Assembly: GCA_016934265.1 (NCBI GenBank)
Contig: JAFGTF010000145.1
Coordinates: 5,643 to 69,642 of the forward strand
DNA: 64,000 bases
Origin: Spirochaetota bacterium
Lineage (GTDB): Bacteria; Spirochaetota; B62-G9; DRHN01
Direction of reading: 5' to 3'
In this document: positions 1 through 58,584 of the stretch, piece by piece
Layout of the letters: each line of letters starts with the position of its first letter
Position numbering within the stretch: position 1 is the first letter of the stretch
Notes under the pieces: model-generated
The model's input: the letters and a program-made list of their open reading frames with translations, nothing else
What the model was told of the DNA's origin: nothing
Databases searched by the model: none
Position numbers and translations under genes: made by a program

Positions 1-110
1 CTTGGGAGACGGTAACGGGATCAGGATCCCGGTCGCGATTTTCGTCGGATCGTATGCCGAATTTAACCGGGAGAGTAACGTTCGATGAAACCACCGAAAG
101 GATTGCGATT

Positions 111-857
111 ATGAAGAACAAAGGCTCGAGGGTATGTGCGGTAACGGGCGGAGCGAGCGGAATAGGACTGTCCATCGCCGAGTATCTATGCGGGAACGGG
201 TATACGGTCGGCATCGTGGACCTGAAGATCGATTCCCTTAATTCGCTTTTTAAGAGCGAGATAAAAAGCGGGAAAATAGCGGCGGCGAAAGCGGATATCA
301 CGAGCCAAAAGGAGGTTGAAAACGCTTTCGACGCAATACGAAACGATCTCGGCGGTGTGGACGTTTTAATAAACAGCGCGGGTGTTCTCGTAAGTAAAAG
401 CTTTTTAAAAGAGGATGAAAACGATTGGGACCGGGTCGTGAACGTGAACTTGAAGGGCGCGTATCTTTGCTGCAAAGCGGTTGTTCCGGGAATGATTAAA
501 AACAACTTCGGTAGAATAGTGAGCATATCATCCATCAGCGGCTTGAAACAGGCCGTTTTTTCCAGCACTGCGTACTGTGCTTCGAAAGCGGGGATCATCG
601 GATTCAGCAGGTGTCTCGCGGCCCAGCTGGCCGGAAACAATATCCGGGTCAACTGCGTGGCGCCGAGCACGACACTGACGCCGATGATAGATGTGTTGGA
701 TGAAAAAACCAAGAACGATTATAAAGAGGCCGTTCCTTTGGGCCGTCTCGCGAAACCGGAGGACATCGTGTACGCGGTCGATTTCCTCATCTCCGACAGG
801 TCGGACTATATCACGGGAGAAACGCTGAATGTAAACGGCGGTTTGCTTATGCGATGA
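111..857 (+). CDS. SDR family NAD(P)-dependent oxidoreductase
   Basis: Gly-rich dinucleotide motif TGGASGIG near the N-terminus, NSAG, and catalytic Y-x3-K (YCASK). The ATG at 111 is preceded by an AAAGGA RBS; the ORF frame opens at 54. Confidence 0.8.
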   Translation: MKNKGSRVCAVTGGASGIGLSIAEYLCGNGYTVGIVDLKIDSLNSLFKSEIKSGKIAAAKADITSQKEVENAFDAIRNDLGGVDVLINSAGVLVSKSFLKEDENDWDRVVNVNLKGAYLCCKAVVPGMIKNNFGRIVSISSISGLKQAVFSSTAYCASKAGIIGFSRCLAAQLAGNNIRVNCVAPSTTLTPMIDVLDEKTKNDYKEAVPLGRLAKPEDIVYAVDFLISDRSDYITGETLNVNGGLLMR

Positions 858-885
858 AACCGGCTCGCCCTGCAAAACGCGCAGG

Positions 886-1989
886 TCAAAAGAGGGGGAT
901 TGCGATCCGTTTCCCGTCCCGAAGCGCCGATTCATGCGCACAAATCCCCGTGCAGGTCCAGTTTGCGGCTTTTTCGGCGTCTATGTAGGAATCTCTATTC
1001 TCCACGATCGAATTGACGAATTCGTTGACCAGGTGGGGATGAGACCCTCCATGATATCCCTTGCCTTGATTGAACGATCGGTGCGGCGTGTCTTCGTCGT
1101 ATACTCCCTCTTTCGTGAATCGCGCTATTTCTTTCGGGAGCATGTCCGCCGTATCGGGCACCTGAATCCGTTGTGCGGTTTCTCCGCCCGTATGTAAAAC
1201 GGGAAGTCCGTCTTCGAGAAGATTCCATTCGAACGACAGTTTCTCGCCGTACACGTCGAAGCTTTCTATATATTGACGGGCAACGTCATAAAGCTCCCTC
1301 GTCACCTCGGCGATGATATCCGAGTCTTTGATACCGATATGCGCTGTTTCCACCGCATAGGGTGAGTTGTGAATTTTGACGAGTGATTCGTTGATCCGCC
1401 CCGAGCCGTGACAAACCACCCATTCCGCTTCCTTGTCCAGGAGAGAAAGAAGAGGGCTCACCGCATGCGTTGCGTAGTGCATGGGAGGAAGGCCGTTCCA
1501 GTAGTCGGGCCAGCCGTACATATCCTGGAGATGCGCCCCCCTGATGAACTGTACCTTTCCGAGCTTGCCGGCGGTATAGAGTTTTTTTACATGGAGGAAC
1601 TCCCGCGTGTACACGGAGGTCTCCATCATCATATACACTTTTTTCGCTTTTCTCCTGGCTTCGATAACCGTCCTGCAATCTTCGACTGTTGTCGCCATCG
1701 GTACCGTACAGGCGACGTGCTTTCCCGCGGAAAACGCGTCGACTGTCATACCGGGGTGATAGGATATTGGAGTCACTATATGCACGGCGTCGAGCTCTTT
1801 TATTTTCAGCATATCCCGATAGTCCGTGAATCTGCGTTCGACGCCGAAACTTTCTCCCCATCGGTTCAAAATCTCTTCGTCGGTATCGCAAACCGCGTAC
1901 AGCTCGCTGTTCGGATGATGCTGGTATATTTTTGCGAAGTTGGCTCCGAAACCGAGGCCCGCCACTCCTACCCGAACTTTTCTTTCCAT
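886..1989 (-). CDS. Gfo/Idh/MocA family oxidoreductase
   Basis: N-terminal Rossmann motif VGVAGLGFGANF is typical of the Gfo/Idh/MocA family. Length about 367 aa. An AAGGAG RBS lies 6 nt upstream of the ATG. Confidence 0.8.
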   Translation of the reverse strand: MERKVRVGVAGLGFGANFAKIYQHHPNSELYAVCDTDEEILNRWGESFGVERRFTDYRDMLKIKELDAVHIVTPISYHPGMTVDAFSAGKHVACTVPMATTVEDCRTVIEARRKAKKVYMMMETSVYTREFLHVKKLYTAGKLGKVQFIRGAHLQDMYGWPDYWNGLPPMHYATHAVSPLLSLLDKEAEWVVCHGSGRINESLVKIHNSPYAVETAHIGIKDSDIIAEVTRELYDVARQYIESFDVYGEKLSFEWNLLEDGLPVLHTGGETAQRIQVPDTADMLPKEIARFTKEGVYDEDTPHRSFNQGKGYHGGSHPHLVNEFVNSIVENRDSYIDAEKAANWTCTGICAHESALRDGKRIAIPLF

Positions 1990-2111
1990 ACATGCTCCTT
2001 ATTTCTCACTTCGGATTTCCGGTGAGCGGCACGGCGCCGTACGAACGATACCGGCGATTCGGCTTTCCGATTCCACCGTTCGGGGTGATGATTTTCACAT
2101 CGGCAAAAAAA

Positions 2112-3518
2112 TCATCCCGGTTTTTTATCTTCCCTGAATCCCTGGTACAGCGATTCCGAGACGTACTCTTCATGCTGCTCCACCGGCGACATCGTGGAGA
2201 TCTCCTCCCAGGGCTCGCGATAGTCGATCGATCCGGCGTATCGAACGACCTCATCCATGTTTTCGAATACTTTCCTGAACGCGTCTATCATCATGTCAAT
2301 GACTTTTTTCGATGTGCTGGGATAGGTAAAGCGGGCGTCCAATGCGAGCGAGCGGCGCAACACATCCAGGGTGTTCGGATAATCCTCTATTCTATACGCC
2401 ACGTCACGTCCGTACGGGCAGGTCCAGGGGCACCCCTTCCCATAGCCGCGCTTGACCTGAAACAGGGATTGTCCAGGAACCGGCGTATGCTGCGATAATC
2501 GAACGAACACGCCTTCGGCACGAAGGATATCCTGTACCGCCTGGCGGAACCTTCCCGCAGGGATTTTTTCTGCCCCCGCCGCTTGCGGATCGACTTTGAA
2601 GTAGTAGATATAATACGCGTGTGTTCTATCCAAGGGAACATACGGCGGTATAACGCCGTCGATCTCTGCAAGCGCGCCGGAGATATATGCGCCGTTTTCA
2701 TGGCGGACACGTACGTTGTCGTCCAATCTCTTCAGCTGGCTTCGAATCATCGCGGCGACGAGCGGATTCATTCTGTAATTCCATCCCATGGTATACGCAT
2801 TGTATTGTCTTTGCCGTCCTGCTTCGATGATCTCCCCGAACATCCTGACCATATCAGCCAGATCCCGGTATCCCTTGTCGTTCGTACAAACCAGCCCTCC
2901 TTCGCCCGCGCCGGGCAGCGGCTTCAGGGGCATTGTGCTGGCGCCGCTGATGTCGCCGAGGTTGCCCGCTTTCCGGCCTTTGTACGTCGCGCCGCCGGCC
3001 TGTGCGGCGTCTTCTATCACTACGAGATCATGCGCCCTGGCGATGGGATATATCTCATCGTAATCGGCGGGCAGACCGTGATAGTCGACCGGCATGATCG
3101 CTTTCGTTTTATCCGTGATCTTTTCAGCAATCTTCCTGTAATCGATGTTGTACGTTTCGGGATCGATATCCACGAACACCGGAATTGCATTATGATGCAT
3201 CACGCTCGTCGCAGAGGCGAGGAATGTGAGAGAGGGGATGATGACTTCGTCACCGGGTTCTATCCCGATCCCCGCGACACAGCCGTGAAGAGCCGACGTG
3301 CCGCTGTTGAACGCCAGGCAGTATTCGGTGCCGGTATATTCCGCGTATTCCTTTTCCAAGGCCGCCGTTTCAGGGTGGTCTTTGCCCCAGAAATTTCCGC
3401 TGTCGATAACACGTATGAGCGCGGCTTTGTCTTCTTTTGTGACTACCGGCCAGTCCTTCGCAATTTCGATGTCCTCCGGTATGGATCTCGGACCCCCGTT
3501 GATTGCAAGTTTCGCCAT
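2112..3518 (-). CDS. DegT/DnrJ/EryC1/StrS family PLP-dependent sugar aminotransferase
   Basis: N-terminal LAINGG, an FNSGTSAL-like segment, and the DAAQAGGA...G motif are characteristic of sugar aminotransferases. Start chosen at the ATG with a GGGAGG RBS; the ORF track extends to a GTG at 3566. Confidence 0.75.
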   Translation of the reverse strand: MAKLAINGGPRSIPEDIEIAKDWPVVTKEDKAALIRVIDSGNFWGKDHPETAALEKEYAEYTGTEYCLAFNSGTSALHGCVAGIGIEPGDEVIIPSLTFLASATSVMHHNAIPVFVDIDPETYNIDYRKIAEKITDKTKAIMPVDYHGLPADYDEIYPIARAHDLVVIEDAAQAGGATYKGRKAGNLGDISGASTMPLKPLPGAGEGGLVCTNDKGYRDLADMVRMFGEIIEAGRQRQYNAYTMGWNYRMNPLVAAMIRSQLKRLDDNVRVRHENGAYISGALAEIDGVIPPYVPLDRTHAYYIYYFKVDPQAAGAEKIPAGRFRQAVQDILRAEGVFVRLSQHTPVPGQSLFQVKRGYGKGCPWTCPYGRDVAYRIEDYPNTLDVLRRSLALDARFTYPSTSKKVIDMMIDAFRKVFENMDEVVRYAGSIDYREPWEEISTMSPVEQHEEYVSESLYQGFREDKKPG

Positions 3519-3613
3519 CTCCTGTACCTCCCGTATTGTATGATAAAAAGCTGTTTCGTCCGGCACGGCGAATCAACCCGCTTTTACCGGCCGCCTATCT
3601 TCTTCTTCGCAAT

Positions 3614-4639
3614 TCAAACGGACTTTCGTACGTTTTTATTGTAATGGTCGATTGCGTGCAGCATCTCCTTTATGTTCTCGAGAGGAGCTTCCGGGGGAAA
3701 ACCGCATGAGGCGGCCAGAAAATCGACTCCTGCATGAATACACTCGAGAGAACTGTCGAACACCTCCCGCTTCGTGCCTTCGAGTATGTGCGTGACGGTC
3801 GGGACCGAGCCTATCAGTTTCATTCTGTTCCCGAGTACGTTTTTAACCTGTTCGACGCTGACCGGCGGCGAGTCGAATGAAAAACCGAAAAATCCCGAAT
3901 CGGGGATATGTTTCAAGAGCGGGCTCGTATTGCCGCATATATGAAGATACACCGGCCCCCGTATGCTGTCGGAGAGCTTTCTGTATACCGGAATGATAAA
4001 CCGCTTGAACGTCTCGCCGGTCAGCCCCTGGCAGAACGGATCGCTGAGATGAATTACATCGCCCCCGCTTCGCAACGCCTCGTTTCCGAACAGTATGCAC
4101 AGGTCCGACAATTTGTCCAGCACTTCGACCGCCCGGGCAGGCTCTTTTATCATCATTTTATACATCTTGTTTACGCCGACGGACAGGCAGGCCACGTCCA
4201 GAGGCCCGCACACCACGGGCACTATTACGATGTCGTCTTTATACCTGTTCCTGACGATACCGATCGCCTTGAATATTTCCGGGAACCTGCCTTTTTTCAA
4301 GATACCGCCGTCTACTCGTATTTCATCGATATCGGAAAACGCGGGCTCTTTGGGCTCTGGAATATCCGTTATCTTGTCTCCGAGGGATGAGGTCCCACCC
4401 AGCGCCTCCAATTCGGCGCAGTGATCCCAATGCAGCATCACCGAGTTGAATCCGGTCGTATCGTGAATGGCCCCCGCGATTTTAGCCATCTCTTCTCCAT
4501 CGTAGTGGCCTTTCGGCCAATACGCGCCGGCGGATTTCATCATATCGACCACGGGGGTGCTGAAAATAATGGTACGGGGGAAATATCCGGGCTCCTCACC
4601 GTTGATAATCCCGAAAACCTCTTCTTTTGGGCTCAGCAT
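3614..4639 (-). CDS. uroporphyrinogen decarboxylase (URO-D) family protein, MtaA/CmuA-like
   Basis: About 340 aa with URO-D-like N-terminal organisation (GEEPGYFPRTI...MMKSAGAYWP) and overall (beta/alpha)8 URO-D family pattern. Confidence 0.55.
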   Translation of the reverse strand: MLSPKEEVFGIINGEEPGYFPRTIIFSTPVVDMMKSAGAYWPKGHYDGEEMAKIAGAIHDTTGFNSVMLHWDHCAELEALGGTSSLGDKITDIPEPKEPAFSDIDEIRVDGGILKKGRFPEIFKAIGIVRNRYKDDIVIVPVVCGPLDVACLSVGVNKMYKMMIKEPARAVEVLDKLSDLCILFGNEALRSGGDVIHLSDPFCQGLTGETFKRFIIPVYRKLSDSIRGPVYLHICGNTSPLLKHIPDSGFFGFSFDSPPVSVEQVKNVLGNRMKLIGSVPTVTHILEGTKREVFDSSLECIHAGVDFLAASCGFPPEAPLENIKEMLHAIDHYNKNVRKSV

Positions 4640-4765
4640 GTCGGTGCGTATCCTTTATTGGTGGTAATGGTTGCGACAGTTTCAATAACAGATTATAACT
4701 CCTTTCAGGGCGGAACACGCCGTGTATTCGTACCATATGTCGACGGTTCGCCAATGGACGGGTTC

Positions 4766-5860
4766 TTATTTACAGCCGTTTTCTATGAACTTCTTCATGC
4801 TCGCGGTCTCTTCTTTGTTCAGATAGCCGGATGTAACCGAAAGCCGGACGGACTTACCCCCTGGTATACTCTTGACATTGCCCTTTTCTTTCTCCCGTGT
4901 ATAGCCTGCCGGGTCACAGGTCGACGGCAGCACCAATCCGAGCACCTCATAGTCCTCATTCCTCCATATCCAGCGTACCGCGTGATCGAGAAGATCCGGC
5001 TTATAATTGACGTAGTTGCCGGATCCGTCTTCGAGGATTTGTAAAAAATGCGCCCAGCCGTCTTTATCCACCTTCGGTTTACGGATGAAGTAGTTTATCT
5101 CGGGGTCGTAAATATCATCCTTTTTGAATTCCTGCGTCAACGAGGGGTTACGTTTCAGGTTGTCGAGCAGCTCGCGCTTTTGTTTCGACAATTTTTCCTG
5201 CTCGTGCAGATGGTCGGTGCTTAGTACGATATCCTTATCCGACCAGCCGAGGCTCTGAACGATGGAACAGCCCGCTTCCGCTCTGAAATTGATATGGCAC
5301 ATGTACATGAGATCCATAGGCTGGTGAAGCAGGTTGCGGATCTCGATCGAGATATCCAGCACATCGCTGTTTTCGTACAGCTTGACGAGCGGTCGTGCAT
5401 GATAATTCGGCGCGAAGGTGGGCAAGTGCTCGTAGGTACCGGAGACTCCCATATATCCGCCTTTGGCATCTTCTCCGATCACGAGTTCCGCACTTTGATA
5501 GTCCGCATATGGAAGCTCCCCGTGCAGGGGGTGGTCGTCTTCCGGTCCGGGACATCCCATTCTGAGGGCGCCGCAGTGCATCATGAGGCAGCCGTAGGAA
5601 TCGAGAAAGAAATCCGTCTCTATCGGCTCGTTTATCACCGTTTTCATTTTCAAGCTCCTGCTATTGAAAACGGCATCCCAAATCTGCTGGCCTTTAAACG
5701 GCAATACGGTAATAAAACCATCCGAGTTTTTGATTCGTACGGCATGGATTCCGCTTCGGTATTTGAAGAGAGAAGCTTCCAGCGTATGAAATTGCAGCAG
5801 GGTCTTCTCCTTCTCGCCGAAAAAGTTTTTTTCAAGGTTTATGACAGTCTCATCTTTCAT
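4766..5860 (-). CDS. hypothetical protein, possibly DUF4432/aldose-1-epimerase-like
   Basis: 364-aa ORF with a GGAGAG RBS, separated by 17 nt from the upstream gene. The family assignment is tentative and based on size and context only. Confidence 0.35.
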   Translation of the reverse strand: MKDETVINLEKNFFGEKEKTLLQFHTLEASLFKYRSGIHAVRIKNSDGFITVLPFKGQQIWDAVFNSRSLKMKTVINEPIETDFFLDSYGCLMMHCGALRMGCPGPEDDHPLHGELPYADYQSAELVIGEDAKGGYMGVSGTYEHLPTFAPNYHARPLVKLYENSDVLDISIEIRNLLHQPMDLMYMCHINFRAEAGCSIVQSLGWSDKDIVLSTDHLHEQEKLSKQKRELLDNLKRNPSLTQEFKKDDIYDPEINYFIRKPKVDKDGWAHFLQILEDGSGNYVNYKPDLLDHAVRWIWRNEDYEVLGLVLPSTCDPAGYTREKEKGNVKSIPGGKSVRLSVTSGYLNKEETASMKKFIENGCK

Positions 5861-5877
5861 TTGTTCTCTCCATTCTT

Positions 5878-6978
5878 TTAATCCTGCAGCTCATGCAGCG
5901 TTTCGGACATCGTTTCGAGGAACGGGGTGCACATCTCTTCGAAAATATTCCCCATGTTGCCGATCTGAAAGAGGTTTAGGTCTTTGAGGTGTCCCTTTCC
6001 GGGGTATACGGTATAGCCCTTAACCTCCATCCTTTGCACGAAGTCGTCCATATCGATATATTCCGGCAGCAGTACCGATGTTATGGTATTCGACGCGTCC
6101 TTCTCGTCGATGAACATCCGAAGCCCCATTTTCTTTACGCCATCACGCAGTATCCGGGCGCATCTTTTGTACCGTGCAATACGCTCCTCCATACCCTCGT
6201 CGAGAAGTTCCTTTACGGCGGCATCCAGCGCAAAAAACTGTGTCGTCGAGGGAGTATTCGTGGTCTGGTGGTACTGTTCGGACATATCGTACAACCGCAG
6301 AAGATTGAGATATGCCGTTTTCGGCCTGTTGTTTCTCATCTCCTCCAGTTTCGACCTCTTGGCACATATTATGCCCACGCCCGGGAGGCTGCCGAGGCAT
6401 TTGTTCGAGGAGCATGTGCAGAAATCTATGTTGTCTCTTAAAACGTCGACGTCCTCTCCCCCGAGCGCGCTCACCGCATCGACGATATACGTCTTATTAT
6501 ACTTACCGGCCAGCGTTCCGATCTCCTGCACCGGATTTATAAAGCTCGCAGCCGATTCCTGAAACGTCATGATGATCGCGCTGATTTTCGGATTTTTCTT
6601 CAGCAGTTCTTCTACTTCCGCCGGGTCCGGTCTCACCCCGTACTCGTACCGCAGCACGGTTTTTTCAATACGATGAATATCGAGCATCTCTTGTAGGCGA
6701 TCGCCGAACTCGCCGTTAGTCAGAAGCAGGGCGTGATGCGTATTTCCGAAATACGATGAAATCACCGCTTCATTGGCGGCGGTTCCCGATCCGGTGATCA
6801 GAAGGACTGTATAACGATCGTCGGCCCTGTATACCTTCAGCAGGTTTCTCTGCAGGTTCTGCAGCACCGCCGTGAATTCAGGCACCCTGTGCCCGATATC
6901 GTCGTGCAGCAGCGCGTTTCGAACGTTGTCCGAGACCATGACCGGTCCCGGTGAAAACAGAAAATGTGTTTTGGCCAT
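5878..6978 (-). CDS. class V aminotransferase (PhnW/AGXT-like, PLP-dependent)
   Basis: FSPGP near the N-terminus and a PLP-lysine motif SSNKCLGSLPGVG resembling the PhnW SANKC...PG.G motif. Confidence 0.65.
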   Translation of the reverse strand: MAKTHFLFSPGPVMVSDNVRNALLHDDIGHRVPEFTAVLQNLQRNLLKVYRADDRYTVLLITGSGTAANEAVISSYFGNTHHALLLTNGEFGDRLQEMLDIHRIEKTVLRYEYGVRPDPAEVEELLKKNPKISAIIMTFQESAASFINPVQEIGTLAGKYNKTYIVDAVSALGGEDVDVLRDNIDFCTCSSNKCLGSLPGVGIICAKRSKLEEMRNNRPKTAYLNLLRLYDMSEQYHQTTNTPSTTQFFALDAAVKELLDEGMEERIARYKRCARILRDGVKKMGLRMFIDEKDASNTITSVLLPEYIDMDDFVQRMEVKGYTVYPGKGHLKDLNLFQIGNMGNIFEEMCTPFLETMSETLHELQD

Positions 6979-7082
6979 GCGAAGCCCTTTTAAAATCGAG
7001 ATTTTAGTCGATGAAACCGTTACACCGCCTCAAACCAACCGTCTCACGGCGCCTCTATCGGCACGATATTCTCGTACCGACG

Positions 7083-8573
7083 CTATGTGTATACTTCGAT
7101 GGTCTTTTTCAGCGCATTCGACCACCCGCTGTACAGTTCTTCCCTCTCCGATTCGGCCATGGATGGTTCATACGTCTTGTGAATTTTCCAGACGGATTGT
7201 ACTTCTTCGAGGCTTTTCCAAAAGCCGACTTTCAGTCCGGCGATGAATGCGGTTCCGAGACACGTCGTCTCCGTCACCTCGGGGACAATGACGGGTATGC
7301 CTAAGATGTCCGCCTGAAACTGCATGAGGAAGGCATTTCGAACCGCGCCGCCGTCCGCTTTCATCCGCGATACCTTAAGACCCGTATCATCTTCCATCAT
7401 GCCGATCATATCCCGAACCTGGTACGCGATTGATTCGAGAGTCGCACGCGCTAGGTGCGCCTTCGTGACGGCACGTGTCAAGCCGATGATCGTTCCCCTG
7501 GTCCGGTAATCCCAGTAGGGAGCGGTTACCCCGACGAATGTCGGGACGAAATACACTCCCATGGTGTTCTTTACGCTTACCGCCAGTTTTTCTATGTCGG
7601 ACGCGGAATCGATAATTCCGAGCCCGTCTCGCAGCCACTGGATCGCCGCGCCGGTGATATATACCGCGCCTTCCTCCGCATAAGTAATCTTATTCTCGAG
7701 GCCCAGGGCGATGGTTACCGTCATTCCGTTTTTGGAAGAGGTTATCTCGTCACCGGTGATGAGATATATACCGCAGCTCGTGCCGTACGTCGTCTTGGAA
7801 TCGCCCTTCTCGAAGCATGCCTGGCCGAAGATCGCACCCTGCTGGTCTACGACGATGCCGGTTATCGGAGCCTCTATACCGAGGAAGATCTTCGGGTCAG
7901 TGGTACCGAAATAATATGAGGAAGGCTTCGGATCCGCCAGAATTTCACGGGGTATCGAAAATTCACGAAGCAGCGCATCGTCCCATTGTTTCGTTCTGAG
8001 ATTGAACAACATGGTCCGAGACGCGGACGTGTAATCGGTAAAAAAGCCCGCCCCTCCGGTCAACCGCCATACAACCCAGGTATCAAGGGTGCTTGCCCTG
8101 ACGCGTCCTTTGGGTAATCCGGCCCGTATTTCGGGCACATTCCGTAAAAGCCACTCGATTTTCGTACTCGAAAAAACGGGATCGATATTCAGACCCGTTT
8201 TTTCAGTAATTTCGGCGGAGAGTTTCTCGCCTATTTTATCGCATCTGTCCGCGGTTCTTCTATCCTGCCACACGATATTATTGTAATACGGAGTACCGGT
8301 TTCGGGGTCCCACGCGACGACGGATTCTCCTTGATGGCTGATTCCCACCGCTTCGATCTTTCCCTTGTCAACTTTTGAAACGGACAGAGCCTCCTGCACG
8401 GTATCGAGGAGCAAATTCCATATCACATCCGGATCCTGCTCCACCCAATCCGGGTGCGGGAAGACGAGCGATATTTCCCTGCTTCCGGAGCCTTGGATAT
8501 TGCTTTCTCTGTCGACGATAATCGCTTTTATTCCCGTCGTCCCTATGTCGATTCCAAGAATATACCCCGACAT
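7083..8573 (-). CDS. FGGY family carbohydrate kinase (glycerol/xylulose kinase-like)
   Basis: The N-terminal YILGIDIGTTGIKA motif is the actin-like ATPase signature of FGGY kinases. About 500 aa. ATG at 8573 with a GGAGG RBS; the ORF frame extends to 8615. Confidence 0.8.
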   Translation of the reverse strand: MSGYILGIDIGTTGIKAIIVDRESNIQGSGSREISLVFPHPDWVEQDPDVIWNLLLDTVQEALSVSKVDKGKIEAVGISHQGESVVAWDPETGTPYYNNIVWQDRRTADRCDKIGEKLSAEITEKTGLNIDPVFSSTKIEWLLRNVPEIRAGLPKGRVRASTLDTWVVWRLTGGAGFFTDYTSASRTMLFNLRTKQWDDALLREFSIPREILADPKPSSYYFGTTDPKIFLGIEAPITGIVVDQQGAIFGQACFEKGDSKTTYGTSCGIYLITGDEITSSKNGMTVTIALGLENKITYAEEGAVYITGAAIQWLRDGLGIIDSASDIEKLAVSVKNTMGVYFVPTFVGVTAPYWDYRTRGTIIGLTRAVTKAHLARATLESIAYQVRDMIGMMEDDTGLKVSRMKADGGAVRNAFLMQFQADILGIPVIVPEVTETTCLGTAFIAGLKVGFWKSLEEVQSVWKIHKTYEPSMAESEREELYSGWSNALKKTIEVYT

Positions 8574-8659
8574 GACGCCTCCGTAACCGTTAGCCGTGTA
8601 CCGCAATCCTCCCAACCGCCTGTTTCCTCGATCCGAAATACCACCGCATAAAACCGGTA

Positions 8660-9460
8660 TCAGTGCGCGGGTTCCGGAAACGTCTCTTCGACGTACCAGT
8701 TCGCGGTAAGCCCGCAGTCCACCACAAGATACGATCCCGTTATCGCCGACGCGTCGTCGGAAGCGAGGAACGCGAACGCCGCCGCAACCTCTTCGACTTT
8801 CACCATCCGGTGCATCGGCGTGCGTTTGAAATCTCCCTTCAGATACTTCAGATTATTCACGCTCACCGAATTATCGAGCATCGGGGTGTACGTCCAGCCC
8901 GGACACACGGCGGCGACACGAATATTATGCTCGGCGAGCTCTATGGCCATCATCCTGTTGAGGCCCAAGAGCCCCGCTTTCGAGGAGTTGTAGCTCGCGA
9001 TGAGCCCGTCTCCTCCGAGCGCGTCCATGGAAGCGTTTATGAGGATGACGCCGCCGCCCGTTTTCGCCATTTCACGTCCCACGCGCTGCGACCAGAGGAA
9101 CGTTCCCTTAAGGTTCGTATCGACGACCATGTCCCAGTTTTCCTCGATTACTTCGAGGAAGGGTGCCGCGTGATCCACGCCTGCGTTGTTGATCAGGATG
9201 TCGATACGTCTCCACCTTTTCATCGCCGCATCCACGGCTGCCTGGACCTCGTCTGATTTGGTAACATCGGAGGTGTAATACCAGGCCTTTTTTCCTTGCG
9301 CCGTGATTTTCGATACCGTATCCTCCAACGGTTTTTTTCTCCTGCCGGTAATCAGCACTTCGGCTCCCTCGTCGGCAAAACGAAACGCGGTCGCCTGCCC
9401 GATGCCGGTTCCGGCGCCGGTGATTATTACGTTTTTTCCGGTGTACCTTTTACTGTCCAT
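8660..9460 (-). CDS. SDR family oxidoreductase
   Basis: VIITGAGTGIGQA dinucleotide motif, NNAG, and a Y-x3-K catalytic signature. Confidence 0.8.
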   Translation of the reverse strand: MDSKRYTGKNVIITGAGTGIGQATAFRFADEGAEVLITGRRKKPLEDTVSKITAQGKKAWYYTSDVTKSDEVQAAVDAAMKRWRRIDILINNAGVDHAAPFLEVIEENWDMVVDTNLKGTFLWSQRVGREMAKTGGGVILINASMDALGGDGLIASYNSSKAGLLGLNRMMAIELAEHNIRVAAVCPGWTYTPMLDNSVSVNNLKYLKGDFKRTPMHRMVKVEEVAAAFAFLASDDASAITGSYLVVDCGLTANWYVEETFPEPAH

Positions 9461-9716
9461 CGTACCCTCCTCTGTGTACGGATAACCCTGAAACGATATA
9501 TACGCGCGCGGCCAGCCGCTGCATGTTCGTACGGCAAACGCGCAACGCCCCCCTCTTTCTTGTGGGATGATATAGAGACATAGATTGATGCCGTCTCTAT
9601 ATGATACTATACATCCTCAAGACCGGCCTCAGAAACGATCTGTCTGTTGCCGCCGTATACTATGGGTATTCTCTCAATGAAACACGAGCTTTTTTATTGC
9701 CGCTTGTCGTTTCCGC

Positions 9717-10703
9717 TCACAACCCGGGGAACAGGTCCTTGAGCCTCACTCCCGTCATCGTGGCCAGCCCTATCTGGGAATAGCCTTCCACGTCGAAAGA
9801 CGAGTCGCGTTTGACGCCGTGCCCGTATCCCTCGTACCACATGTAGTACGTATCCTTTACCCTGACGAATGTGGAGTACCAGAGCCCTCCTTCGTCCCAG
9901 GCGCCGTCCTCACCCCTCGGATATATCGGATTTTTAGAGTATTTCGTCCAATGGATCAGGTCTCTCGACGCCGCCAGCCACAGATTTTTCGAATAATCGT
10001 AATGGGTATCGTCGCCCGCATATATCATGAAGTAGATACCGTCCTCGAACAGAATCCTGGGAGTGGTGTGATAGACGTCCCACTCTCCGGGTGGGAGGAC
10101 GGGCTCGGTACCGTACTCTTCGAAATGATATCCATCTTCGGATATCGCGAGATGAATATGGAATGGGCCGTTGATGAAATACCCGCGGTGCTCGCTTTTG
10201 AGATAGATGAGATAGAACTTCCCGTCTTTGAATATCATCTCCGGAGATCTTCCGACGAAAACGGGGTTCTTGTCGTACTTCGTGAAATGATATCCGTCGG
10301 AGGATACGGCGAGCCCGATGGAATCCGGATGCTTGCCTTCCTGCCTCGTGCCCGATATTCCGGTATAGTAGAGCATGATTTTTCCGTCTTTATCCAAGGC
10401 CGCCGGGTCCAGTACGTATTTGCAATCGAAAGATCCGGGCGGTCCGACGTCGATAACGGGATTATTCTTGTAATCGTCGAAATGTTTCCCGTCGAATTTG
10501 TCCTTTTTAACCGTCATCACTCCTATTCGGTCTTTTCCGTCGGTTCCCTGTCCTCTGTAATAGAGAAAGTAGGTATCCCCGATCAGCAATAGATCCGGAT
10601 TGGCGGTCCATGCGTGTTTCCATGTGCCGCGAACGACAGGGAAAACCGGGTTGCCGGGGTCTCGTTTCCAGGGCAAATAGTCATGATCATTTTTTACGCT
10701 CAT
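9717..10703 (-). CDS. glycoside hydrolase, 5-bladed beta-propeller type (GH130/GH43-like)
   Basis: Repeated DG-x-Y/F-x-hydrophobic-Y blades (GDTYFLYYRG, DGKIMLYYTG, DGKFYLIYL, DGIYFMIYAG), typical of GH43/GH130/DUF377 propellers. Confidence 0.55.
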   Translation of the reverse strand: MSVKNDHDYLPWKRDPGNPVFPVVRGTWKHAWTANPDLLLIGDTYFLYYRGQGTDGKDRIGVMTVKKDKFDGKHFDDYKNNPVIDVGPPGSFDCKYVLDPAALDKDGKIMLYYTGISGTRQEGKHPDSIGLAVSSDGYHFTKYDKNPVFVGRSPEMIFKDGKFYLIYLKSEHRGYFINGPFHIHLAISEDGYHFEEYGTEPVLPPGEWDVYHTTPRILFEDGIYFMIYAGDDTHYDYSKNLWLAASRDLIHWTKYSKNPIYPRGEDGAWDEGGLWYSTFVRVKDTYYMWYEGYGHGVKRDSSFDVEGYSQIGLATMTGVRLKDLFPGL

Positions 10704-11198
10704 TTCAAACCCCCTCGTTAAAGTTGAATTACAACTATTCTACAGAATAACTTTTTAATGTCAATACAATTAAGTGATTGTTTTGGTGATTGCTTACCAA
10801 TAGCGGCACGAGCCGTCACTGGCACGTGTCCCTCAGTGAATTCGAAGATGATTTCAGGATTCACAATCGGGCCTTCAGCTTCCGTATTTAGTGAAAACGT
10901 AAGAATCCTCTCATCGTCCTCGATCGTGCAAATTTCCGTCTTTGATTCATAAAAGCCATACGACACGGGTCTTGCTCTTTGGCTTCGCAGTATGCGTGTC
11001 GGCCCGGGCGGCGGGAAACAACGGCGGGTTCAGCCTCAAGCGGCGGTATTCTCTCGGGATAAACATGAAAATAAGCTTGAAGGAAGTCATTGATGAATGT
11101 ATAAAGACTGTAAGGAAATGGTTTCCCGTTACACGCAGTCGCAAACTGCTGTTTTCAATACGGGATGGATATGAAACAAGGAATATACGGATACCGAT

Positions 11199-12071
11199 AT
11201 GAGCCGGAAACAAGAGACGAATTTTGAAAAAAAGCCGCCCCTTATTTTTCGTATCAAGGAGAAAAATACGATCAGGAAAGCTGCTAAGGTCTCAAAGAGT
11301 ATCTTCAGCCTTTTAAACAAGGAATACTTGAACCGGATCATTCTCGCAAACTGCTCGTTCTCCGAAGGCCATGGGGCCCGGGCTAATTATCTCGGGCTGG
11401 GAATGCTGTATTACAGCTTCGTGCATTTATTGAAGGCAAAGGTCGCCGTCTGTCTGGGGTCAGGGGGAGGGTTCGTCCCGCGTATAATGAGGCAGGCCCA
11501 GAGAGACCTCGATATCGAGAAATGCTCGAGAACGATTGTGATAGATGCTGACAAGCCGGAATTGCGGTATGGCAATCCCGATTATCTGCATGAAGGGTCT
11601 TTTCTCAGGACGTTATTTCCGCACATCGAGATCATTGTCAAGCCGACGAAAGAGGGGGCTTGTTATTTTGTGGAAAACGGTATAAAGATCGATTATCTCC
11701 ATATCGATGCTGACCATTCTTACAGCGGCTCTTTGTCCGATTACCAGGCGTACAGGCCCCTCATGGCCGATAATTTCATAATAACGCTCCATGATACCAA
11801 TCTCGAGGGAGTGGCTAAGGCCGTCGAGCATATTCGTAATAAGGAAGATCTCGAGGTAATGGATTTCAACTATCTTTGGGGGGGGCTGGCCATTGTGAAG
11901 CCTAAAACGGCCCCCGATATTCCGATATCCCCTCAAGACTCTTTCCCGGTGAGTATTGATCAAAGCAGGCGTTTTATAATTTTTTTACTGAAGAAACACG
12001 CACCGAAGCTGTATGACAAGCTGAAAGAAATTGATGAGTCTATAAGGCGGGATGAGAGCTCAATGGTCTGA
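11199..12071 (+). CDS. class I SAM-dependent methyltransferase (TylF/CmcI-like)
   Basis: The HIDADHSYSG motif and the preceding Gly-rich segment are typical of the macrocin O-methyltransferase/CmcI family. Lies in the AT-richer segment. Confidence 0.55.
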   Translation: MSRKQETNFEKKPPLIFRIKEKNTIRKAAKVSKSIFSLLNKEYLNRIILANCSFSEGHGARANYLGLGMLYYSFVHLLKAKVAVCLGSGGGFVPRIMRQAQRDLDIEKCSRTIVIDADKPELRYGNPDYLHEGSFLRTLFPHIEIIVKPTKEGACYFVENGIKIDYLHIDADHSYSGSLSDYQAYRPLMADNFIITLHDTNLEGVAKAVEHIRNKEDLEVMDFNYLWGGLAIVKPKTAPDIPISPQDSFPVSIDQSRRFIIFLLKKHAPKLYDKLKEIDESIRRDESSMV

Positions 12072-12152
12072 CCGTCACGGACTCTGTTCGCAGGTACTGC
12101 CGTTACGGTGTATCGTTCACTCGATGCCTGTAGATTTCACACAATCGGTGAT

Positions 12153-13064
12153 TCAAAGCGGTTTTTCAGCTTCGTCTTGTTGTTCTGTTGCGATGGCTGT
12201 ATGATATCCTTCCTTTGGGCTATTATACAGTCTGTATTTTATCTTGTAGGCTATTGGGAGAAAACTCTTGGGGAGCATTCTCATCAATGAAGAGATGATG
12301 CTGAAGGGAAAGAGCAGAGGATACCTGTAGACAGGTACCAGTTTCAATGCGTAGAGCTTATTCAGAATGTCACTGAGAGCCTTCTCGACTCCTCTCCTGC
12401 GGATATAGAAATCCGGTCCCCTCCTGAAAAAAAGAAGTTTTTCGTCCATGTTCTCGATCTTGTATTCCTGCCGCAGCAGAGTAATACAGAGTCTGTAGTC
12501 TTCACCGAAATGGAAGCGTTCGTCATAGTGTATGTTCTTCAGCACTTCGGATCTGGCAAATATGGTCGGTCCGTTTACCGGAGAAAAAAGAGGGGCCGTC
12601 TTTTTCACATCCGCATGCCGTAACGTCATGTTTTTTTCCCCTACGACAGCACCTTTTTCGTCTATCTCGTAGTATGCCGAGCCTATCAGGTCGGCTTTGC
12701 TTTTTTGGATATATATAAGCTGCTTCTTCAACCTGTCCGTAACCGATATGTCATCGGCATCCATTACAGCTATATAATCGCCTTTCGCTTGTGAGATCCC
12801 CACGTTTCGCGCACCTGAAGGACCGATACTACTGACCGAAGAAAGAATACGGATTCTTTTGTCTTTGCTTTTTGCTCCGTCGAGGTATTCATTCTTTTCA
12901 AAATCGAGCTCACCGTCGGTTATTATCAAGAATTCGAGATTGCGATGGCTCTGATGAAGAATGCTTTCAACGGCTTCGGTGAGGAACCCGGGTGAATCCT
13001 CCCGGTTTGTCGCCATGATGACGCTTATCAGCGGGTCTGGGATGTCGGTATCAGGCTTCGTCAT
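12153..13064 (-). CDS. glycosyltransferase family 2
   Basis: ISVIMATNRED, a DAD-like acidic motif (MDADDIS) and the overall GT2 pattern. The start is uncertain: ATG at 13064 is preferred (12 aa before ISVIM), with alternative ATG at 13118 and TTG at 13133. Confidence 0.7.
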   Translation of the reverse strand: MTKPDTDIPDPLISVIMATNREDSPGFLTEAVESILHQSHRNLEFLIITDGELDFEKNEYLDGAKSKDKRIRILSSVSSIGPSGARNVGISQAKGDYIAVMDADDISVTDRLKKQLIYIQKSKADLIGSAYYEIDEKGAVVGEKNMTLRHADVKKTAPLFSPVNGPTIFARSEVLKNIHYDERFHFGEDYRLCITLLRQEYKIENMDEKLLFFRRGPDFYIRRRGVEKALSDILNKLYALKLVPVYRYPLLFPFSIISSLMRMLPKSFLPIAYKIKYRLYNSPKEGYHTAIATEQQDEAEKPL

Positions 13065-13478
13065 AGTATGTTCGATACGTGAACGGCGGCCTTTTCCCGG
13101 TCCGCCCTGTCCTTTCATACGTTCTGCCGGCAAACGGCATGTGAAATGGGCCTGATATGAAAATCATTCTCCCGGGCCGTCGGCACCCCAAAACCGCCTT
13201 TTCGAGCCATGGAGGATTTATTCAGCGGTTCATCCGGCGATTTCGTGACCTGGCCTTTCCGCGACACCCTGAAAAATTATTATACTATTAGCGAATGTTC
13301 ATGTCACGCAGTTTAAACGGGCAGCTTTTTCATCGAGCTGTTATTTGTTGTGGATATAGTATGGTTTTATGGTATTATACCGGTATCAATCCGGTCTTGC
13401 AGCATGTTTTGTACCGCTCTATTGTTATGAATTCTGCAATTTCGTTTTGAAATATGAAGACGGTGTGTAAAGTACTGT

Positions 13479-15068
13479 ATGTCGTTACTTACAAAGATCC
13501 TAAAGTACTGGCGGTTTGCCTCGGGGCTCAGGGGCTTTCTCGGTGAGAAGCTGAGCGCAAAGCGGTGTTATGAGATAATCAAAAAAAGTCAAAAGAACAG
13601 GGAGCAGAGCTTCTTAGACGTGGTACGGAAGGCCGTATATGGGAATAAAAAAAGCCCCTACCTGAAGCTGCTTCGGCTTGCACGGCTCGGATACGACGAT
13701 TTGGAACGAATGGTACACTCTGAGGGCATCGAATCGGCGCTCCATATGCTGAGGGATAAAGGCGTCTATATCGGCAGCGAGGAGTTCAAGTGCAAGAAGA
13801 GCGTGGTCAGGGACGGCAAGGTCTTTACCTTCAAAGAGAGCGACTTCAATAATCCCCTGATTGCAAGCAACCTCGAATACAAGACGGGGGCAAGCCGGAG
13901 CAGCGGCACGAAGGTCACGATGAATTTCGCCCGGTACGAACGGTATGCCGCCTATAACCGGATTGCAGCCGATGCGCACGGCGTTTCGGACAGCCCGGTG
14001 ATACTCTGGCTGCCGATTCTGCCTTCGGCGGCGTGTCTTGTAACCCTGCTCCGCCTGACGAAGATCGGCAATACGCCGGTACGGTGGTTTTCCCAGATTA
14101 CCGCGGAGAAAGTGAAGCCCGCTGTCGCCAAGCGGCTTGCGATGCTCTATTTTGTTTTCGCCGGAAGGCTCTTCGGCGCCTCCTTCCCGAGACCGGAGTA
14201 TGTCGGCCCGGACAGAAGTTACAGGGTCTGTGAATACATAGCGGAGGTACTGAAAAAGGGGCATGGCTGTGTAATAGAGACGTATACGAGCTCCGCTGTC
14301 AGGGCATGCCAGGCGGCGAGGGAGCGGAATATCGATATCTCCGGTGCGACGTTTTTCGTCGCGGGAGAACCGCTTACCGAAGCGAAGCACGGGGAAATAC
14401 TCGATGCCGGTGCCCGCGCGGTCAACATGTACGCAGGAGTCGATATCGGGCTCATCGGTTACAGCTGCGCTGCGGCTGAAGCTTCGGGCGAGGTGCATGC
14501 CTTGACCGACCGCCAGGCCGTAATCCAGCACACCCGAAGGGCCCCTTTCGGCGGAGAGGAGATCGATGCGTTTCTCTTTACCTCTCTGTGCCCCACGTCG
14601 GCAAAAATATTGCTCAATGTGGAAAGCGGCGATTACGGAACCATCAGAAAAAGGAACTGCGGCTGCGGGCTCGGGAAGCTCGGCTTTGATAGCCATATCT
14701 ATGACATCAGGGGGTTCGACAAGCTAACGGGGGAGGGGATGACCTTTATCGGTACCGATCTGCTCAGGATCGTCGAGGAGGTGCTGCCCTCCGTATTCGG
14801 AGGCTCGTCCATCGACTACCAGATGGTCGAGGAGGAGGACGGGGCCGGCCGTACCTGCATGAGCGTGATCGTAAATCCGGATATAACCCCACTGGACGAA
14901 AAAGAGCTCATCAGGATCATTATGCTCGAATTGCGAAAGGGCGGGGACACGCGCCGGATGATGGCCGAGATGTGGTTCCAGGCGGGGACGCTGAAGGTGG
15001 TTCGGAGACGGCCATATATCACCGATGCGGGCAAGTTTCTGCCCCTTTACATCAGAAGAAACGTCTGA
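13479..15068 (+). CDS. hypothetical protein, possibly adenylate-forming (PaaK/CapK-like) enzyme
   Basis: 529 aa. The GASRSSGTKVT segment resembles a degenerate AMP-binding core motif. Its context next to GT2 and methyltransferase genes is like that of capsular CapK proteins. Weak call. Confidence 0.3.
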   Translation: MSLLTKILKYWRFASGLRGFLGEKLSAKRCYEIIKKSQKNREQSFLDVVRKAVYGNKKSPYLKLLRLARLGYDDLERMVHSEGIESALHMLRDKGVYIGSEEFKCKKSVVRDGKVFTFKESDFNNPLIASNLEYKTGASRSSGTKVTMNFARYERYAAYNRIAADAHGVSDSPVILWLPILPSAACLVTLLRLTKIGNTPVRWFSQITAEKVKPAVAKRLAMLYFVFAGRLFGASFPRPEYVGPDRSYRVCEYIAEVLKKGHGCVIETYTSSAVRACQAARERNIDISGATFFVAGEPLTEAKHGEILDAGARAVNMYAGVDIGLIGYSCAAAEASGEVHALTDRQAVIQHTRRAPFGGEEIDAFLFTSLCPTSAKILLNVESGDYGTIRKRNCGCGLGKLGFDSHIYDIRGFDKLTGEGMTFIGTDLLRIVEEVLPSVFGGSSIDYQMVEEEDGAGRTCMSVIVNPDITPLDEKELIRIIMLELRKGGDTRRMMAEMWFQAGTLKVVRRRPYITDAGKFLPLYIRRNV

Positions 15069-15239
15069 ATATAGAATGCCGGGAGATCGTACCGCCCCCC
15101 AAACCGCCGGGAGGCGGAGCAGGGGGAGTACCGCAGGCTGTTCTCTTTCTATTTCACTGCGGGGCGGGCTCCTTCGGAACCGTAACCGGAAGCAATCCGG
15201 AAGACGCATATGAATGTAGACAAAAGGAGAGATCGGACA

Positions 15240-16274: not shown

Positions 16275-16286
16275 CGCTTTTAATCG

Positions 16287-20202: not shown

Positions 20203-20515
20203 AAATCTACCGGCCCGGGTGTGTGGGCAAGCGAGACCTCTAGAGGGTACTGCGAGAGCCAACACGGTTCTCGGAATATCCGTTTCATTAAAGAGGGGGA
20301 GAATGCGTGCAAGCCACCGGTTTCACCGAACAAGAGAATATGGTGATTCAATAGGCGTACGATGAATCATTCTGCCTCGAGCACCCCCGATGTTGAAATG
20401 TACTGTTCTATTCGCAGATGGTAATCAAGGGCCCGGTGCTCTTGCTGGCGCTCGGCCTGGATATCCTGAGCCAGAAATCGATCAAGTTCGTGGAATAGAC
20501 CGGGGGAGAGAAAAG

Positions 20516-25759: not shown

Positions 25760-25841
25760 CAGCTGAAACGGTCGAATCAATCCTCGTTTGTATTAATTGG
25801 CAGTAGTGGTATAATTGAGGAAGCCCAAAAGGAGGTGTGAA

Positions 25842-26549: not shown

Positions 26550-26561
26550 CGGTGAGAAGCG

Positions 26562-58278: not shown

Positions 58279-58584
58279 CGCCCCGCTCCCGCTGTAATTT
58301 TGGGGGGATGTAGCACCCTATATGCTCGTAACCGGTTCATAGAGAAAGGTTAAAGGCCCTTTTTACATAAAAGTGGTTTAACCCCCTCCTTTTTACAGAA
58401 AGCGGGATGAGCAGCCAAGGTGCACTAGAGCGATATCACAAAACACAAGAGAGAGCCGGTATGTATGGCAAAACAGCTCTATCTTCTGAACTGTTAATGT
58501 TTTATCAATGTAACGTTTCTTACCAAAGAGGTATGACAAAGGTACACTTTACATAAACCAAATATCAGGTATGGAGGAGAACTA

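Follow-up and report, generated by a model that had tools for sequence, protein, structure and literature searches.

In the 64-kb stretch of spirochaete DNA analysed here (contig JAFGTF010000145.1; hereafter the window, with positions counted from its first nucleotide), the region 886-10703 contains, by the listing of its open reading frames (ORFs), eight long genes that all lie on the minus strand. We tentatively read these genes as a lineage-restricted catabolic or salvage operon, which would be expressed from one promoter and would convert a small imported decorated sugar or polyol into a phosphorylated intermediate of central metabolism. Judged by the predicted activities, the most fitting substrate would be a glycoside of a sugar, polyol or cyclitol that bears amino and/or methyl-(thio) substituents. 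The cluster appears to be a carbohydrate-type operon made from at least three neofunctionalised enzymes together with a methanogen-type methyltransferase in an unusual setting. Catabolism or salvage is favoured because relatives of the propeller protein, of the DUF4432 protein and of the pair formed by a DegT protein and a uroporphyrinogen decarboxylase-fold (URO-D) protein lie in sugar uptake operons, which for several members are operons with ATP-binding cassette (ABC) transporters. A further reason is that the cluster abuts a GH51 arabinofuranosidase gene and a furanose-type ABC operon in two related lineages. This agrees with a preliminary description of the same DNA, which had proposed the catabolic or salvage conversion of a released glycoside moiety.

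Organization and conservation of the cluster

Domains were assigned by Pfam and NCBIfam scans of the ORFs, and the loci used for comparison, which carry numbers such as L002 or L179, came from searches of a genome collection and of metagenomes. The eight genes and the two elements found upstream of genes 1 and 2 are given here in the direction of transcription.

10737-10764, minus strand: sigma-70-type promoter upstream of gene 1, TTGACA-16 nt-TAGAAT, with 11 of 12 consensus positions
9717-10703, minus strand: gene 1, beta-propeller protein, glycosidase/phosphorylase-like and distantly GH130/GH43/GH32-like, 328 aa
9570-9602, minus strand: hairpin in the 256-nt spacer between genes 1 and 2, with an 11-bp stem (AUAUAGAGACG...UGUCUCUAUAU) and no T-run after it
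8660-9460, minus strand: gene 2, classical short-chain dehydrogenase/reductase (SDR), 266 aa
7083-8570, minus strand: gene 3, GlpK-derived FGGY kinase, 495 aa, in an ORF that extends to 8615
5878-6978, minus strand: gene 4, class V, PhnW-related aminotransferase of the pyruvate type, 366 aa
4766-5860, minus strand: gene 5, DUF4432 protein with a galactose-mutarotase fold, 364 aa
3614-4639, minus strand: gene 6, URO-D-fold, MtaA/CmuA-like methyltransferase, 341 aa
2112-3518, minus strand: gene 7, DegT-family aminotransferase of the Fic25/AziC7 type, dependent on pyridoxal phosphate (PLP), 468 aa, in an ORF that extends to 3566
886-1989, minus strand: gene 8, atypical Gfo/Idh/MocA-fold protein without the EKP motif, 367 aa

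The preliminary description had counted nine genes, although its own list held eight names, and eight ORFs are present. It was correct in calling them all co-directional, and its eight domain assignments are upheld by both Pfam and NCBIfam. The order of the first genes, given as glycosidase, kinase and SDR, is in fact glycosidase, SDR and kinase. The true starts of the DegT gene and the kinase gene are likely internal to their ORFs, since the gene calls at orthologous loci and the alignments with Fic25 and GlpK point to inner starts. With these revised starts, the spacers from gene 1 to gene 8 measure 256, 89, 104, 17, 126, 95 and 122 nt; thus, the short spacers described earlier hold for part of the cluster, and other spacers are long.

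The promoter upstream of gene 1 is the sole match at 11 of 12 positions and the best one in a scan of positions 1-11300, which also returned weak promoter-like matches inside the cluster. The ATG of gene 1 is preceded by a GAGGGGG ribosome-binding site. In L179 the -35 box is kept together with its surroundings, and in L003 the -35 box is kept. Terminator-like sites occur at counts within the shuffled expectation, with none prominent inside the cluster, and an Rfam search of positions 1-13500 (E<=0.1) found no riboswitch and no other known RNA. The hairpin between genes 1 and 2 has an equivalent in L179, with changes on both stem arms (z = -5.6), and is missing in the L003 lineage, which has a spacer of 41 nt at this place. 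The hairpin may serve in RNA processing or stability, or as an operator. Relative to L179, the dN/dS ratio is 0.04-0.09 for every one of the eight genes (dS 0.67-1.0), and all eight, the atypical ones included, are under strong purifying selection. Because a single strong promoter precedes the genes, no internal terminator stands out, the order is kept in two other lineages and the dN/dS ratios are this low, the cluster is better regarded as an operon than as a chance grouping.

The identical eight genes occur in the identical order in two other metagenomic spirochaete lineages, at 73-95% amino-acid identity to the window (86-95% in L179-L182; 73-89% in L002-L004 and L100). Their upstream flanks are different. 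The L179 lineage has the same flank as the window, with genes for a Methyltransf_24 protein, a family 2 glycosyltransferase (GT2), a 529-aa protein and a TAXI-type binding protein of a tripartite ATP-independent periplasmic (TRAP) transporter, whereas the L003 lineage has a transaldolase-family gene, a UxaE-like gene and a glycyl-radical enzyme gene. Since only one of the two related lineages shares the upstream flank of the window, the eight-gene block seems to move as a unit. Downstream, both lineages have a convergent SDR gene, the GH51 arabinofuranosidase gene arfA (ArfA, 768 bits), a DUF362 gene, a gene for a 256-aa protein, and genes for a YtfQ/RbsB-like binding protein and a permease. 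In the window, the cluster is bordered by the following genes.

54-857, plus strand: convergent SDR (adh_short match) past the 3' end of gene 8, with stop codons 28 nt apart; a boundary feature outside the operon
11199-12071, plus strand: Methyltransf_24 gene, divergent 5' neighbour, followed by a GT2 gene

The preliminary description put a divergent SDR on the 5' side of the cluster; the gene at 54-857 is instead convergent and at the 3' end, and the Methyltransf_24 gene is the true divergent neighbour. Orthologues of this SDR lie tail-to-tail with the cluster in L002, L179 and L181, and it is probably the last gene of the neighbouring arabinofuranosidase/ABC-transporter operon, cut off by the start of the window.

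To the extent of our searches, the combination appears specific to one narrow, apparently uncultured spirochaete lineage. A DUF4432 profile scan of the genome collection, with one genome per species, gave 80 loci, mostly from Spirochaetota, Chloroflexota, Synergistota and Christensenella, and the best of them, at 68-71% identity, belong to uncultured Spirochaetaceae/Spirochaetia, in line with a spirochaete origin of the window. When all eight proteins were compared with these 80 loci by tblastn, none had the cluster, and only unrelated FGGY kinases (23-29%) and SDRs (28-38%) were returned. An MtaA-like profile scan of metagenomes gave another 80 loci. Cluster genes occur in just two of these, L099 and L100, as partial copies from the same two lineages, and the cluster is not present in the other 78. 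The sole adjacency that recurs in distant organisms is that of a DegT gene beside an MtaA-like gene, in L097 (50% identity to the window for the MtaA-like protein and 38% for DegT) and in L098 (53% and 44%). The comparison of gene neighbourhoods across genomes, which had been suggested earlier, thus finds the set together in three related lineages and nowhere else among ~160 loci. The literature on DUF4432, on URO-D and corrinoid enzymes with methylated sugars, and on spirochaete O-demethylases yielded no described pathway of such a kind. The earlier statement that the combination matches no standard pathway therefore stands, as no fitting route was found and the combination is confined to close relatives.

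Comparison of the enzymes with their relatives

The family models match gene 1 weakly and in part (PF04041, 30.5 bits over residues 179-235 only; NCBIfam, 64 bits against a cut-off of 450). Its AlphaFold model, with a predicted local distance difference test (pLDDT) value of 90.8, is a beta-propeller with five blades. In Foldseek it is closest to GH130 beta-1,2-mannobiose/oligomannan phosphorylases (7fip/9fj8), with template modelling (TM) scores of 0.68-0.70 and 18-21% identity, and next to GH43, GH32 and GH117 proteins; the GH130 relatives listed include a mannoside synthase. Thus, gene 1 shares the five-bladed propeller with the GH130 phosphorylases and hydrolases and with GH43, GH32 and GH117, and GH130 is the best fold match (TM 0.70). 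However, the identity to GH130 is only 18-21%, and the sequence models cover short stretches at scores far under the NCBIfam cut-offs. Unlike GH130 genes, the close homologues of gene 1 belong to monosaccharide-type (CUT2) operons and not to oligosaccharide loci: those at 63-70% identity sit within ribose-type CUT2 ABC-transporter operons, one set with a LacI regulator. At ~50% identity the family is widespread in Bacteroidota, Ignavibacteria and Planctomycetota, and one homologue at 50% lies upstream of genes for a glycyl-radical enzyme, its activase, a URO-D protein and a sugar ABC transporter. The N-terminus of gene 1 has no hydrophobic signal-like stretch, and the propeller is predicted to be cytoplasmic. 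The neighbouring SDR, gene 2, matches adh_short_C2 (208 bits) and scores above the cut-off of the 'glucose 1-dehydrogenase' subfamily NF005559 (229 against 215 bits).

Gene 5 matches PF14486 (DUF4432) with 56.8 bits against a cut-off of 32.5. A sequence search of the PDB with gene 5 gave no match, and the fold search alone gave matches: the AlphaFold model (pLDDT 85) is closest to 3ty1, a putative aldose 1-epimerase (TM 0.76), and then to GalM enzymes. Structure prediction with Foldseek had been suggested for the cluster in the preliminary description; run on genes 1 and 5, it recovered the GH130-like propeller and the mutarotase fold. His, Asp and Glu residues are invariant across the DUF4432 family alignment and are compatible with a mutarotase-like site; we take them to resemble the GalM residues. 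Neighbouring genes of the family point to sugar metabolism. At 68 DUF4432 loci, the 133 neighbour proteins encoded on the same strand include 20 CUT2 permeases, 15 FGGY kinases, 15 PfkB kinases and six fucose isomerases, and also LacI regulators, with URO-D proteins at a few of the loci. The nearest DUF4432 homologues outside the cluster (68-71% identity) come after CUT2 ABC genes.

The kinase encoded by gene 3 does belong to the FGGY family, as stated earlier, but it is a GlpK derivative with a remodelled glycerol pocket. It is highly similar to E. coli GlpK (E ~1e-148) and passes the NF000756 subfamily cut-off (626 against 498 bits); however, it falls just under the GlpK equivalog cut-off TIGR01311 (581.7 against 590.35 bits). 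The residues Arg83, Glu84, Trp103, Tyr135, Asp245 and Phe270 presumably form the glycerol contacts in the E. coli GlpK structures. Glu84, Trp103 and the catalytic Asp245 are retained in gene 3, whereas Arg83 is replaced by Gly, Tyr135 by Val and Phe270 by Gly, and the six positions carry the same residues in L179 and L003. With three of the six contact residues lost, the pocket should be widened, and because R83G, Y135V and F270G remove side chains, we infer that the substrate is larger than glycerol. The idea of an unmodified glycerol kinase that serves a glyceryl glycoside was considered and was rejected on the basis of these pocket residues.

Gene 4 matches Aminotran_5 and shares the class V fold with PhnW, the 2-aminoethylphosphonate (AEP):pyruvate transaminase, which is both its best family match and its best PDB match (AEP transaminase 1m32, 1.4e-52). 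However, gene 4 misses all three PhnW equivalog cut-offs (295.5 against 360.8, 242.9 against 296 and 227 against 400.8 bits), and the cluster has no phosphonatase or other enzyme of C-P cleavage. The phosphonate-related route considered in the preliminary description is therefore unlikely.

The second aminotransferase, gene 7, matches PF01041 (277 bits), and its best PDB match is Fic25 (8gyh; 8.6e-100, ~45% identity). The alignment runs end to end (residues 17-446), and the PLP lysine aligns with that of 'ATKNIP' in Fic25, whereas the matches to NtdA (7.5e-29) and WbpE (8e-50) are far weaker. Gene 7 therefore shares full-length identity of ~45%, including a C-terminal extension, with Fic25 and AziC7 of ficellomycin and azinomycin biosynthesis (PDB 8gyh-8gyj). 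Fic25 aminates the keto group of a carrier-protein-bound hydroxylated chain, a ketose-like hydroxyketone (PMC11726168). The settings differ, since the substrate of Fic25 is attached to an amino-group carrier protein and the enzyme belongs to an actinomycete secondary-metabolite cluster, whereas gene 7 lies among carbohydrate genes of a spirochaete. In the eight genes, Pfam and NCBIfam found no carrier-protein, LysX-type or transketolase domain, and the 256-nt gap, the sole spacer examined for a small carrier-like ORF, holds only short chance-like ORFs. Keto-sugar or inosose amination had been named as typical of this gene paired with gene 8; the DegT family is confirmed, but the nearest relative is Fic25 and not a nucleotide-sugar or inosose aminotransferase.

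A Gfo/Idh/MocA protein paired with a DegT protein is the classic module for turning a hydroxyl group into a keto group and then an amine, and in Gfo/Idh/MocA enzymes the EKP motif carries the catalytic/cofactor lysine. Such an adjacent pair had been pointed out in the cluster and is present, but its Gfo-like member lacks EKP. Gene 8 has the N-terminal NAD(P)-binding Rossmann domain (PF01408, 78.1 bits against a cut-off of 24); its C-terminal domain is below cut-off, and the PDB matches span residues 4-177 only. Where DgpA, 3moi, 9m3d and 3q2k have EKP, gene 8 has C-T-V-P-M-A, and the same holds in L179 and L003. An exhaustive search of 1.84 billion proteins returned 237 cluster representatives of the subfamily at E<=1e-30. 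Among 28 aligned members, 26 have xVP at the EKP position (ACxVPMA consensus), and the motif GSHPHLVHEF is conserved. On these alignments, gene 8 represents a small uncharacterised subfamily with a different predicted active site, in which TVP or AVP replaces EKP. The adjacent Gfo-fold and DegT pair is a feature that the cluster shares with NtdC/NtdA (kanosamine), RifL/RifK, WbpB/WbpE and IdhA-like/MosB (rhizopine synthesis). It differs from all of these in that gene 8 has no EKP and an N-terminal match only, and in that there is no phosphatase or nucleotide-sugar enzyme here.

Gene 6 passes NF004889 (255.5 against 244 bits) and falls under TIGR01463 (220.2 against 235.4 bits), and its best PDB match is 4ay7 (1.4e-50). 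The subfamily is rare, with 17 matches at E<=1e-20 in a word-indexed search. H233-x-C235 and C312 do not vary among the 17 homologues and correspond to HICG...GCG in 4ay7, so that gene 6 is predicted to keep a His-Cys-Cys zinc site. It shares the URO-D fold and the His-x-Cys...Cys triad, besides NF004889 membership, with MtaA, MtbA, MtsA and the 'Mlp' proteins of type 1 mlp clusters (PMC10418091). In this superfamily, His-Cys-Cys is the zinc sphere of S- and Se-methyltransferases, whereas O-methyltransferases have one or both Cys replaced (Kountz and Balskus, PMC10418091). O-Demethylation of a methoxy sugar or cyclitol (rhizopine-like) was initially favoured and was downgraded, since the ligands of gene 6 are of the S/Se type (PMC10418091). 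The rule may not be absolute, because 4ay7 bears the same triad. We take 4ay7 to be part of an O-demethylase system that binds methyl-tetrahydrofolate.

Gene 6 also differs from the MtaA, MtbA, MtsA and Mlp proteins in its setting, as it sits in a carbohydrate cluster beside a DegT gene, and no B12-binding domain of a corrinoid protein, no reductive activase and no second Mlp was found in the scanned ORFs of the 64-kb window. Among the loci of relatives of gene 6 at 41-49% identity, five of ~11 have a gene for a B12-binding corrinoid protein as a neighbour, often with a second paralogue. The MtaA-like/DegT pair of L097 sits directly after a CUT2 ABC transporter.

Several of the compared loci contain related genes in other arrangements. 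L008-L010 (~4500-12200) encode a B12-binding corrinoid protein together with two paralogues of the MtaA-like type (47% and 40% identity to gene 6). These lie among genes for two pyruvate formate-lyase-like glycyl-radical enzymes, two ureidoglycolate-lyase-like proteins, BtpA/SgcQ, sugar ABC transporters and a PfkB kinase, and the whole resembles a corrinoid methyltransferase system surrounded by carbohydrate-type genes. URO-D proteins also occur in sugar operons of other phyla: an FGGY-DUF4432-fucose isomerase-URO-D arrangement (L021, 13117-14304), a CUT2 ABC-FGGY-DUF4432-LacI arrangement with up to three URO-D genes (L078, 12471-16578) and a propeller-glycyl-radical enzyme-URO-D-ABC arrangement (L015, 12496-13596). 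The zinc-ligand positions of these proteins hold His with Cys/Asp and Asp/His, which is the O-methyltransferase pattern according to PMC10418091, and they are candidates for anaerobic demethylation of methoxy sugars. In L097 (1-16400), the surroundings of the DegT/MtaA-like pair include a CuyA/XcbE-like PLP enzyme (302 bits, sub-cut-off), RidA, an SftI-like isomerase (115 bits), a zinc-dependent alcohol dehydrogenase and an SGL lactonase-like gene. Its opposite strand encodes a second URO-D protein, sulfur-transport and Se/S-carrier genes and an SclA-like cysteine desulfurase, and this content gives a hint of sulfur chemistry.

Proposed route and alternative explanations

If the operon encodes one catabolic or salvage route, its enzymes could act as follows. 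First, the cytoplasmic propeller would cleave a small glycoside by hydrolysis or phosphorolysis, and the DUF4432 mutarotase-like protein would equilibrate the anomers of the freed reducing sugar. The SDR and the EKP-less Gfo/Idh/MocA protein would carry out hydroxyl/keto redox steps. The Fic25-type DegT enzyme may then interconvert a ketose-like C=O flanked by CH-OH groups with an amine, and the PhnW-related class V enzyme may interconvert a terminal amine and aldehyde via pyruvate and alanine. The MtaA-like enzyme would remove or transfer a methyl group at a zinc-bound heteroatom, probably with a corrinoid protein encoded elsewhere. Finally, the GlpK-derived kinase, with its pocket widened by R83G, Y135V and F270G, would phosphorylate a polyol or ketose larger than glycerol.

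Several observations weigh against this reading. Besides DegT/URO-D, no pair of the eight genes recurs in ~160 related loci of other organisms, and the functional coupling of the genes is therefore argued from their co-location in one narrow lineage alone. The operon includes neither a transporter nor a regulator, and internal promoters could fit into its longer spacers, which reach 256 nt here and 322 nt in L002. An oxidoreductase role of gene 8 is not certain, because it lacks the EKP lysine, and a tblastn search of the 64-kb window with the corrinoid protein of L008 gave no match. The predicted activities also do not single out a substrate by name.

The preliminary description had assumed one conversion route, and this part of it is less secure, as the cluster may instead consist of two modules. 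A propeller/SDR/kinase/class V aminotransferase/DUF4432 module and a separate MtaA-like/DegT/Gfo-like module would then be adjacent by chance and would not form one pathway, an explanation that we find rather doubtful but worth weighing. Such a mosaic would agree with the recurrence of the DegT/MtaA-like adjacency, and of no other, outside the lineage (L097, L098), and with the result that none of the 80 DUF4432 loci has another cluster member at comparable similarity. The spacer between the DUF4432 gene and the MtaA-like gene is also among the longest (126 nt in the window, 165 nt in L179 and 322 nt in L002), and weak promoter-like matches lie within the cluster. However, a single strong promoter precedes all the genes, no internal terminator rises above the shuffled expectation, and the eight genes stay together in three lineages despite one differing upstream flank. 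A lone three-gene module would moreover have no kinase or other exit to central metabolism.

It is improbable, though still a serious alternative, that the operon is biosynthetic and makes an aminated and/or methylated sugar-polyol that would serve as a compatible solute, as the head group of a glycolipid or to decorate the envelope, for example, with the propeller as a synthase or reverse phosphorylase and the MtaA-like protein as a methylating enzyme. The near-consensus promoter and the lack of a transporter or regulator would suit such a role. Gfo/Idh/MocA and DegT pairs are best known from biosynthesis (NtdC/NtdA, RifL/RifK, WbpB/WbpE), Fic25, the closest solved relative of gene 7, is biosynthetic, and the mannoside synthase among the GH130 relatives would provide a precedent for the propeller. 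GT2 and Methyltransf_24 genes lie directly upstream in the window and in the L179 lineage; however, both are absent there from the L003 lineage, which has the transaldolase-family, UxaE-like and glycyl-radical enzyme genes instead. Homologues of the propeller, of DUF4432 and of the DegT/URO-D pair are also found in uptake and catabolic operons, and a mutarotase-like protein is typical of free-sugar catabolism.

A divergent copy of a described route, whether for inositol/rhizopine (moc/mos), 2-aminoethylphosphonate, kanosamine, sulfoquinovosyl-glycerol or C2/C3-sulfonates, is very unlikely: although the Gfo/Idh/MocA and DegT pair resembles MocA/MosB and NtdC/NtdA, weak IolG NCBIfam matches exist, the class V aminotransferase is PhnW-related, a glycerol-type kinase with a mutarotase would suit a glyceryl glycoside, and the L097 pair lies near the CuyA-like and SftI-like proteins, every equivalog cut-off is missed (IolG, PhnW and NtdA-type; SftI/CuyA in L097), the Gfo-like protein has no EKP and the kinase pocket no longer suits glycerol. 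By Pfam and NCBIfam, the cluster lacks iolBCDE, mocC/DE, phnX/phnA/phnY, an NtdB-type phosphatase and a sulfoglycolytic isomerase, aldolase, lactonase or dehydratase. An inositol route had also been put forward, but gene 8 scores 78 bits for IolG against a cut-off of 355, and the cluster contributes to it nothing other than this divergent EKP-less protein, with no IolB/C/D/E or MocC/MocDE function; the opposite strand does carry two AP_endonuc_2 genes, at a distance of 10-17 kb. Sulfonate or sulfoquinovose metabolism was rejected as the main explanation, since the L097 matches are all below cut-off and outside the window, and the same scans found no sulfoglycolysis enzyme or sulfolyase in the window cluster.

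Genomic setting and wider meaning

The remaining 50 kb of the window is ordinary chromosome, with der, ptsI, dnaG, rpoD and yceG. The transporter nearest the cluster is encoded on the opposite strand at 15210-18203 (+), by a gene for a TAXI-type (NMT1_3) binding protein followed by one for a 638-aa fused DctM-type TRAP permease; these genes lie upstream of the cluster in the L179 lineage as well, and not in the L003 lineage. Beside them, at 13479-15068 (+), is the 529-aa ORF, which has no Pfam or NCBIfam match and is conserved at this place, beside the TAXI-TRAP binding protein, in L179, L180 and L182. Two adjacent ORFs of 244 and 338 aa without a Pfam match (25815-27578, +) lie between a beta-lactamase-family gene and a gene for a xylose-isomerase-like TIM-barrel protein, and a second gene of the latter type is at 20390-21382. 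A CooS-type CO dehydrogenase (Prismane family, 596 bits) is encoded after a CooC-like P-loop ATPase at 57502-60510, and the same window holds a catalase gene at 18757-20202. CooS and CooC are consistent with an anaerobe that may handle CO or C1 units and have no direct bearing on the cluster.

To our knowledge, the removal of sugar methyl or methylthio groups by anaerobes has not been described. As a speculative and rather unlikely extension of the catabolic reading, the operon could serve to process, without oxygen, a sugar or aminopolyol that bears sulfur or methyl decorations, by a route in which an MtaA-type His-Cys-Cys methyltransferase acts in carbohydrate catabolism and is coupled to a Fic25-type transaminase, an EKP-less Gfo protein and a GlpK-derived kinase. 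The only enzymes so far known to demethylate carbohydrates are oxygen-dependent P450s (PMC6292453). More broadly, and if true, URO-D methyltransferases encoded in sugar operons would do under anoxic conditions what the P450 carbohydrate demethylases do with oxygen. Examples would be gene 6, of the His-Cys-Cys type, and the His/Cys/Asp types whose genes neighbour those for DUF4432, FGGY and fucose isomerase proteins in L021 and L078. Practical use is limited at present, as the lineage is narrow and apparently uncultured. If the eight genes do form one pathway, it would be a catabolic route absent from current databases, and it would give first functions to the GH130-like propeller family, to DUF4432 and to the EKP-less Gfo subfamily, as well as to a GlpK paralogue of new specificity and to a corrinoid-type methyltransferase acting on a carbohydrate-derived substrate.

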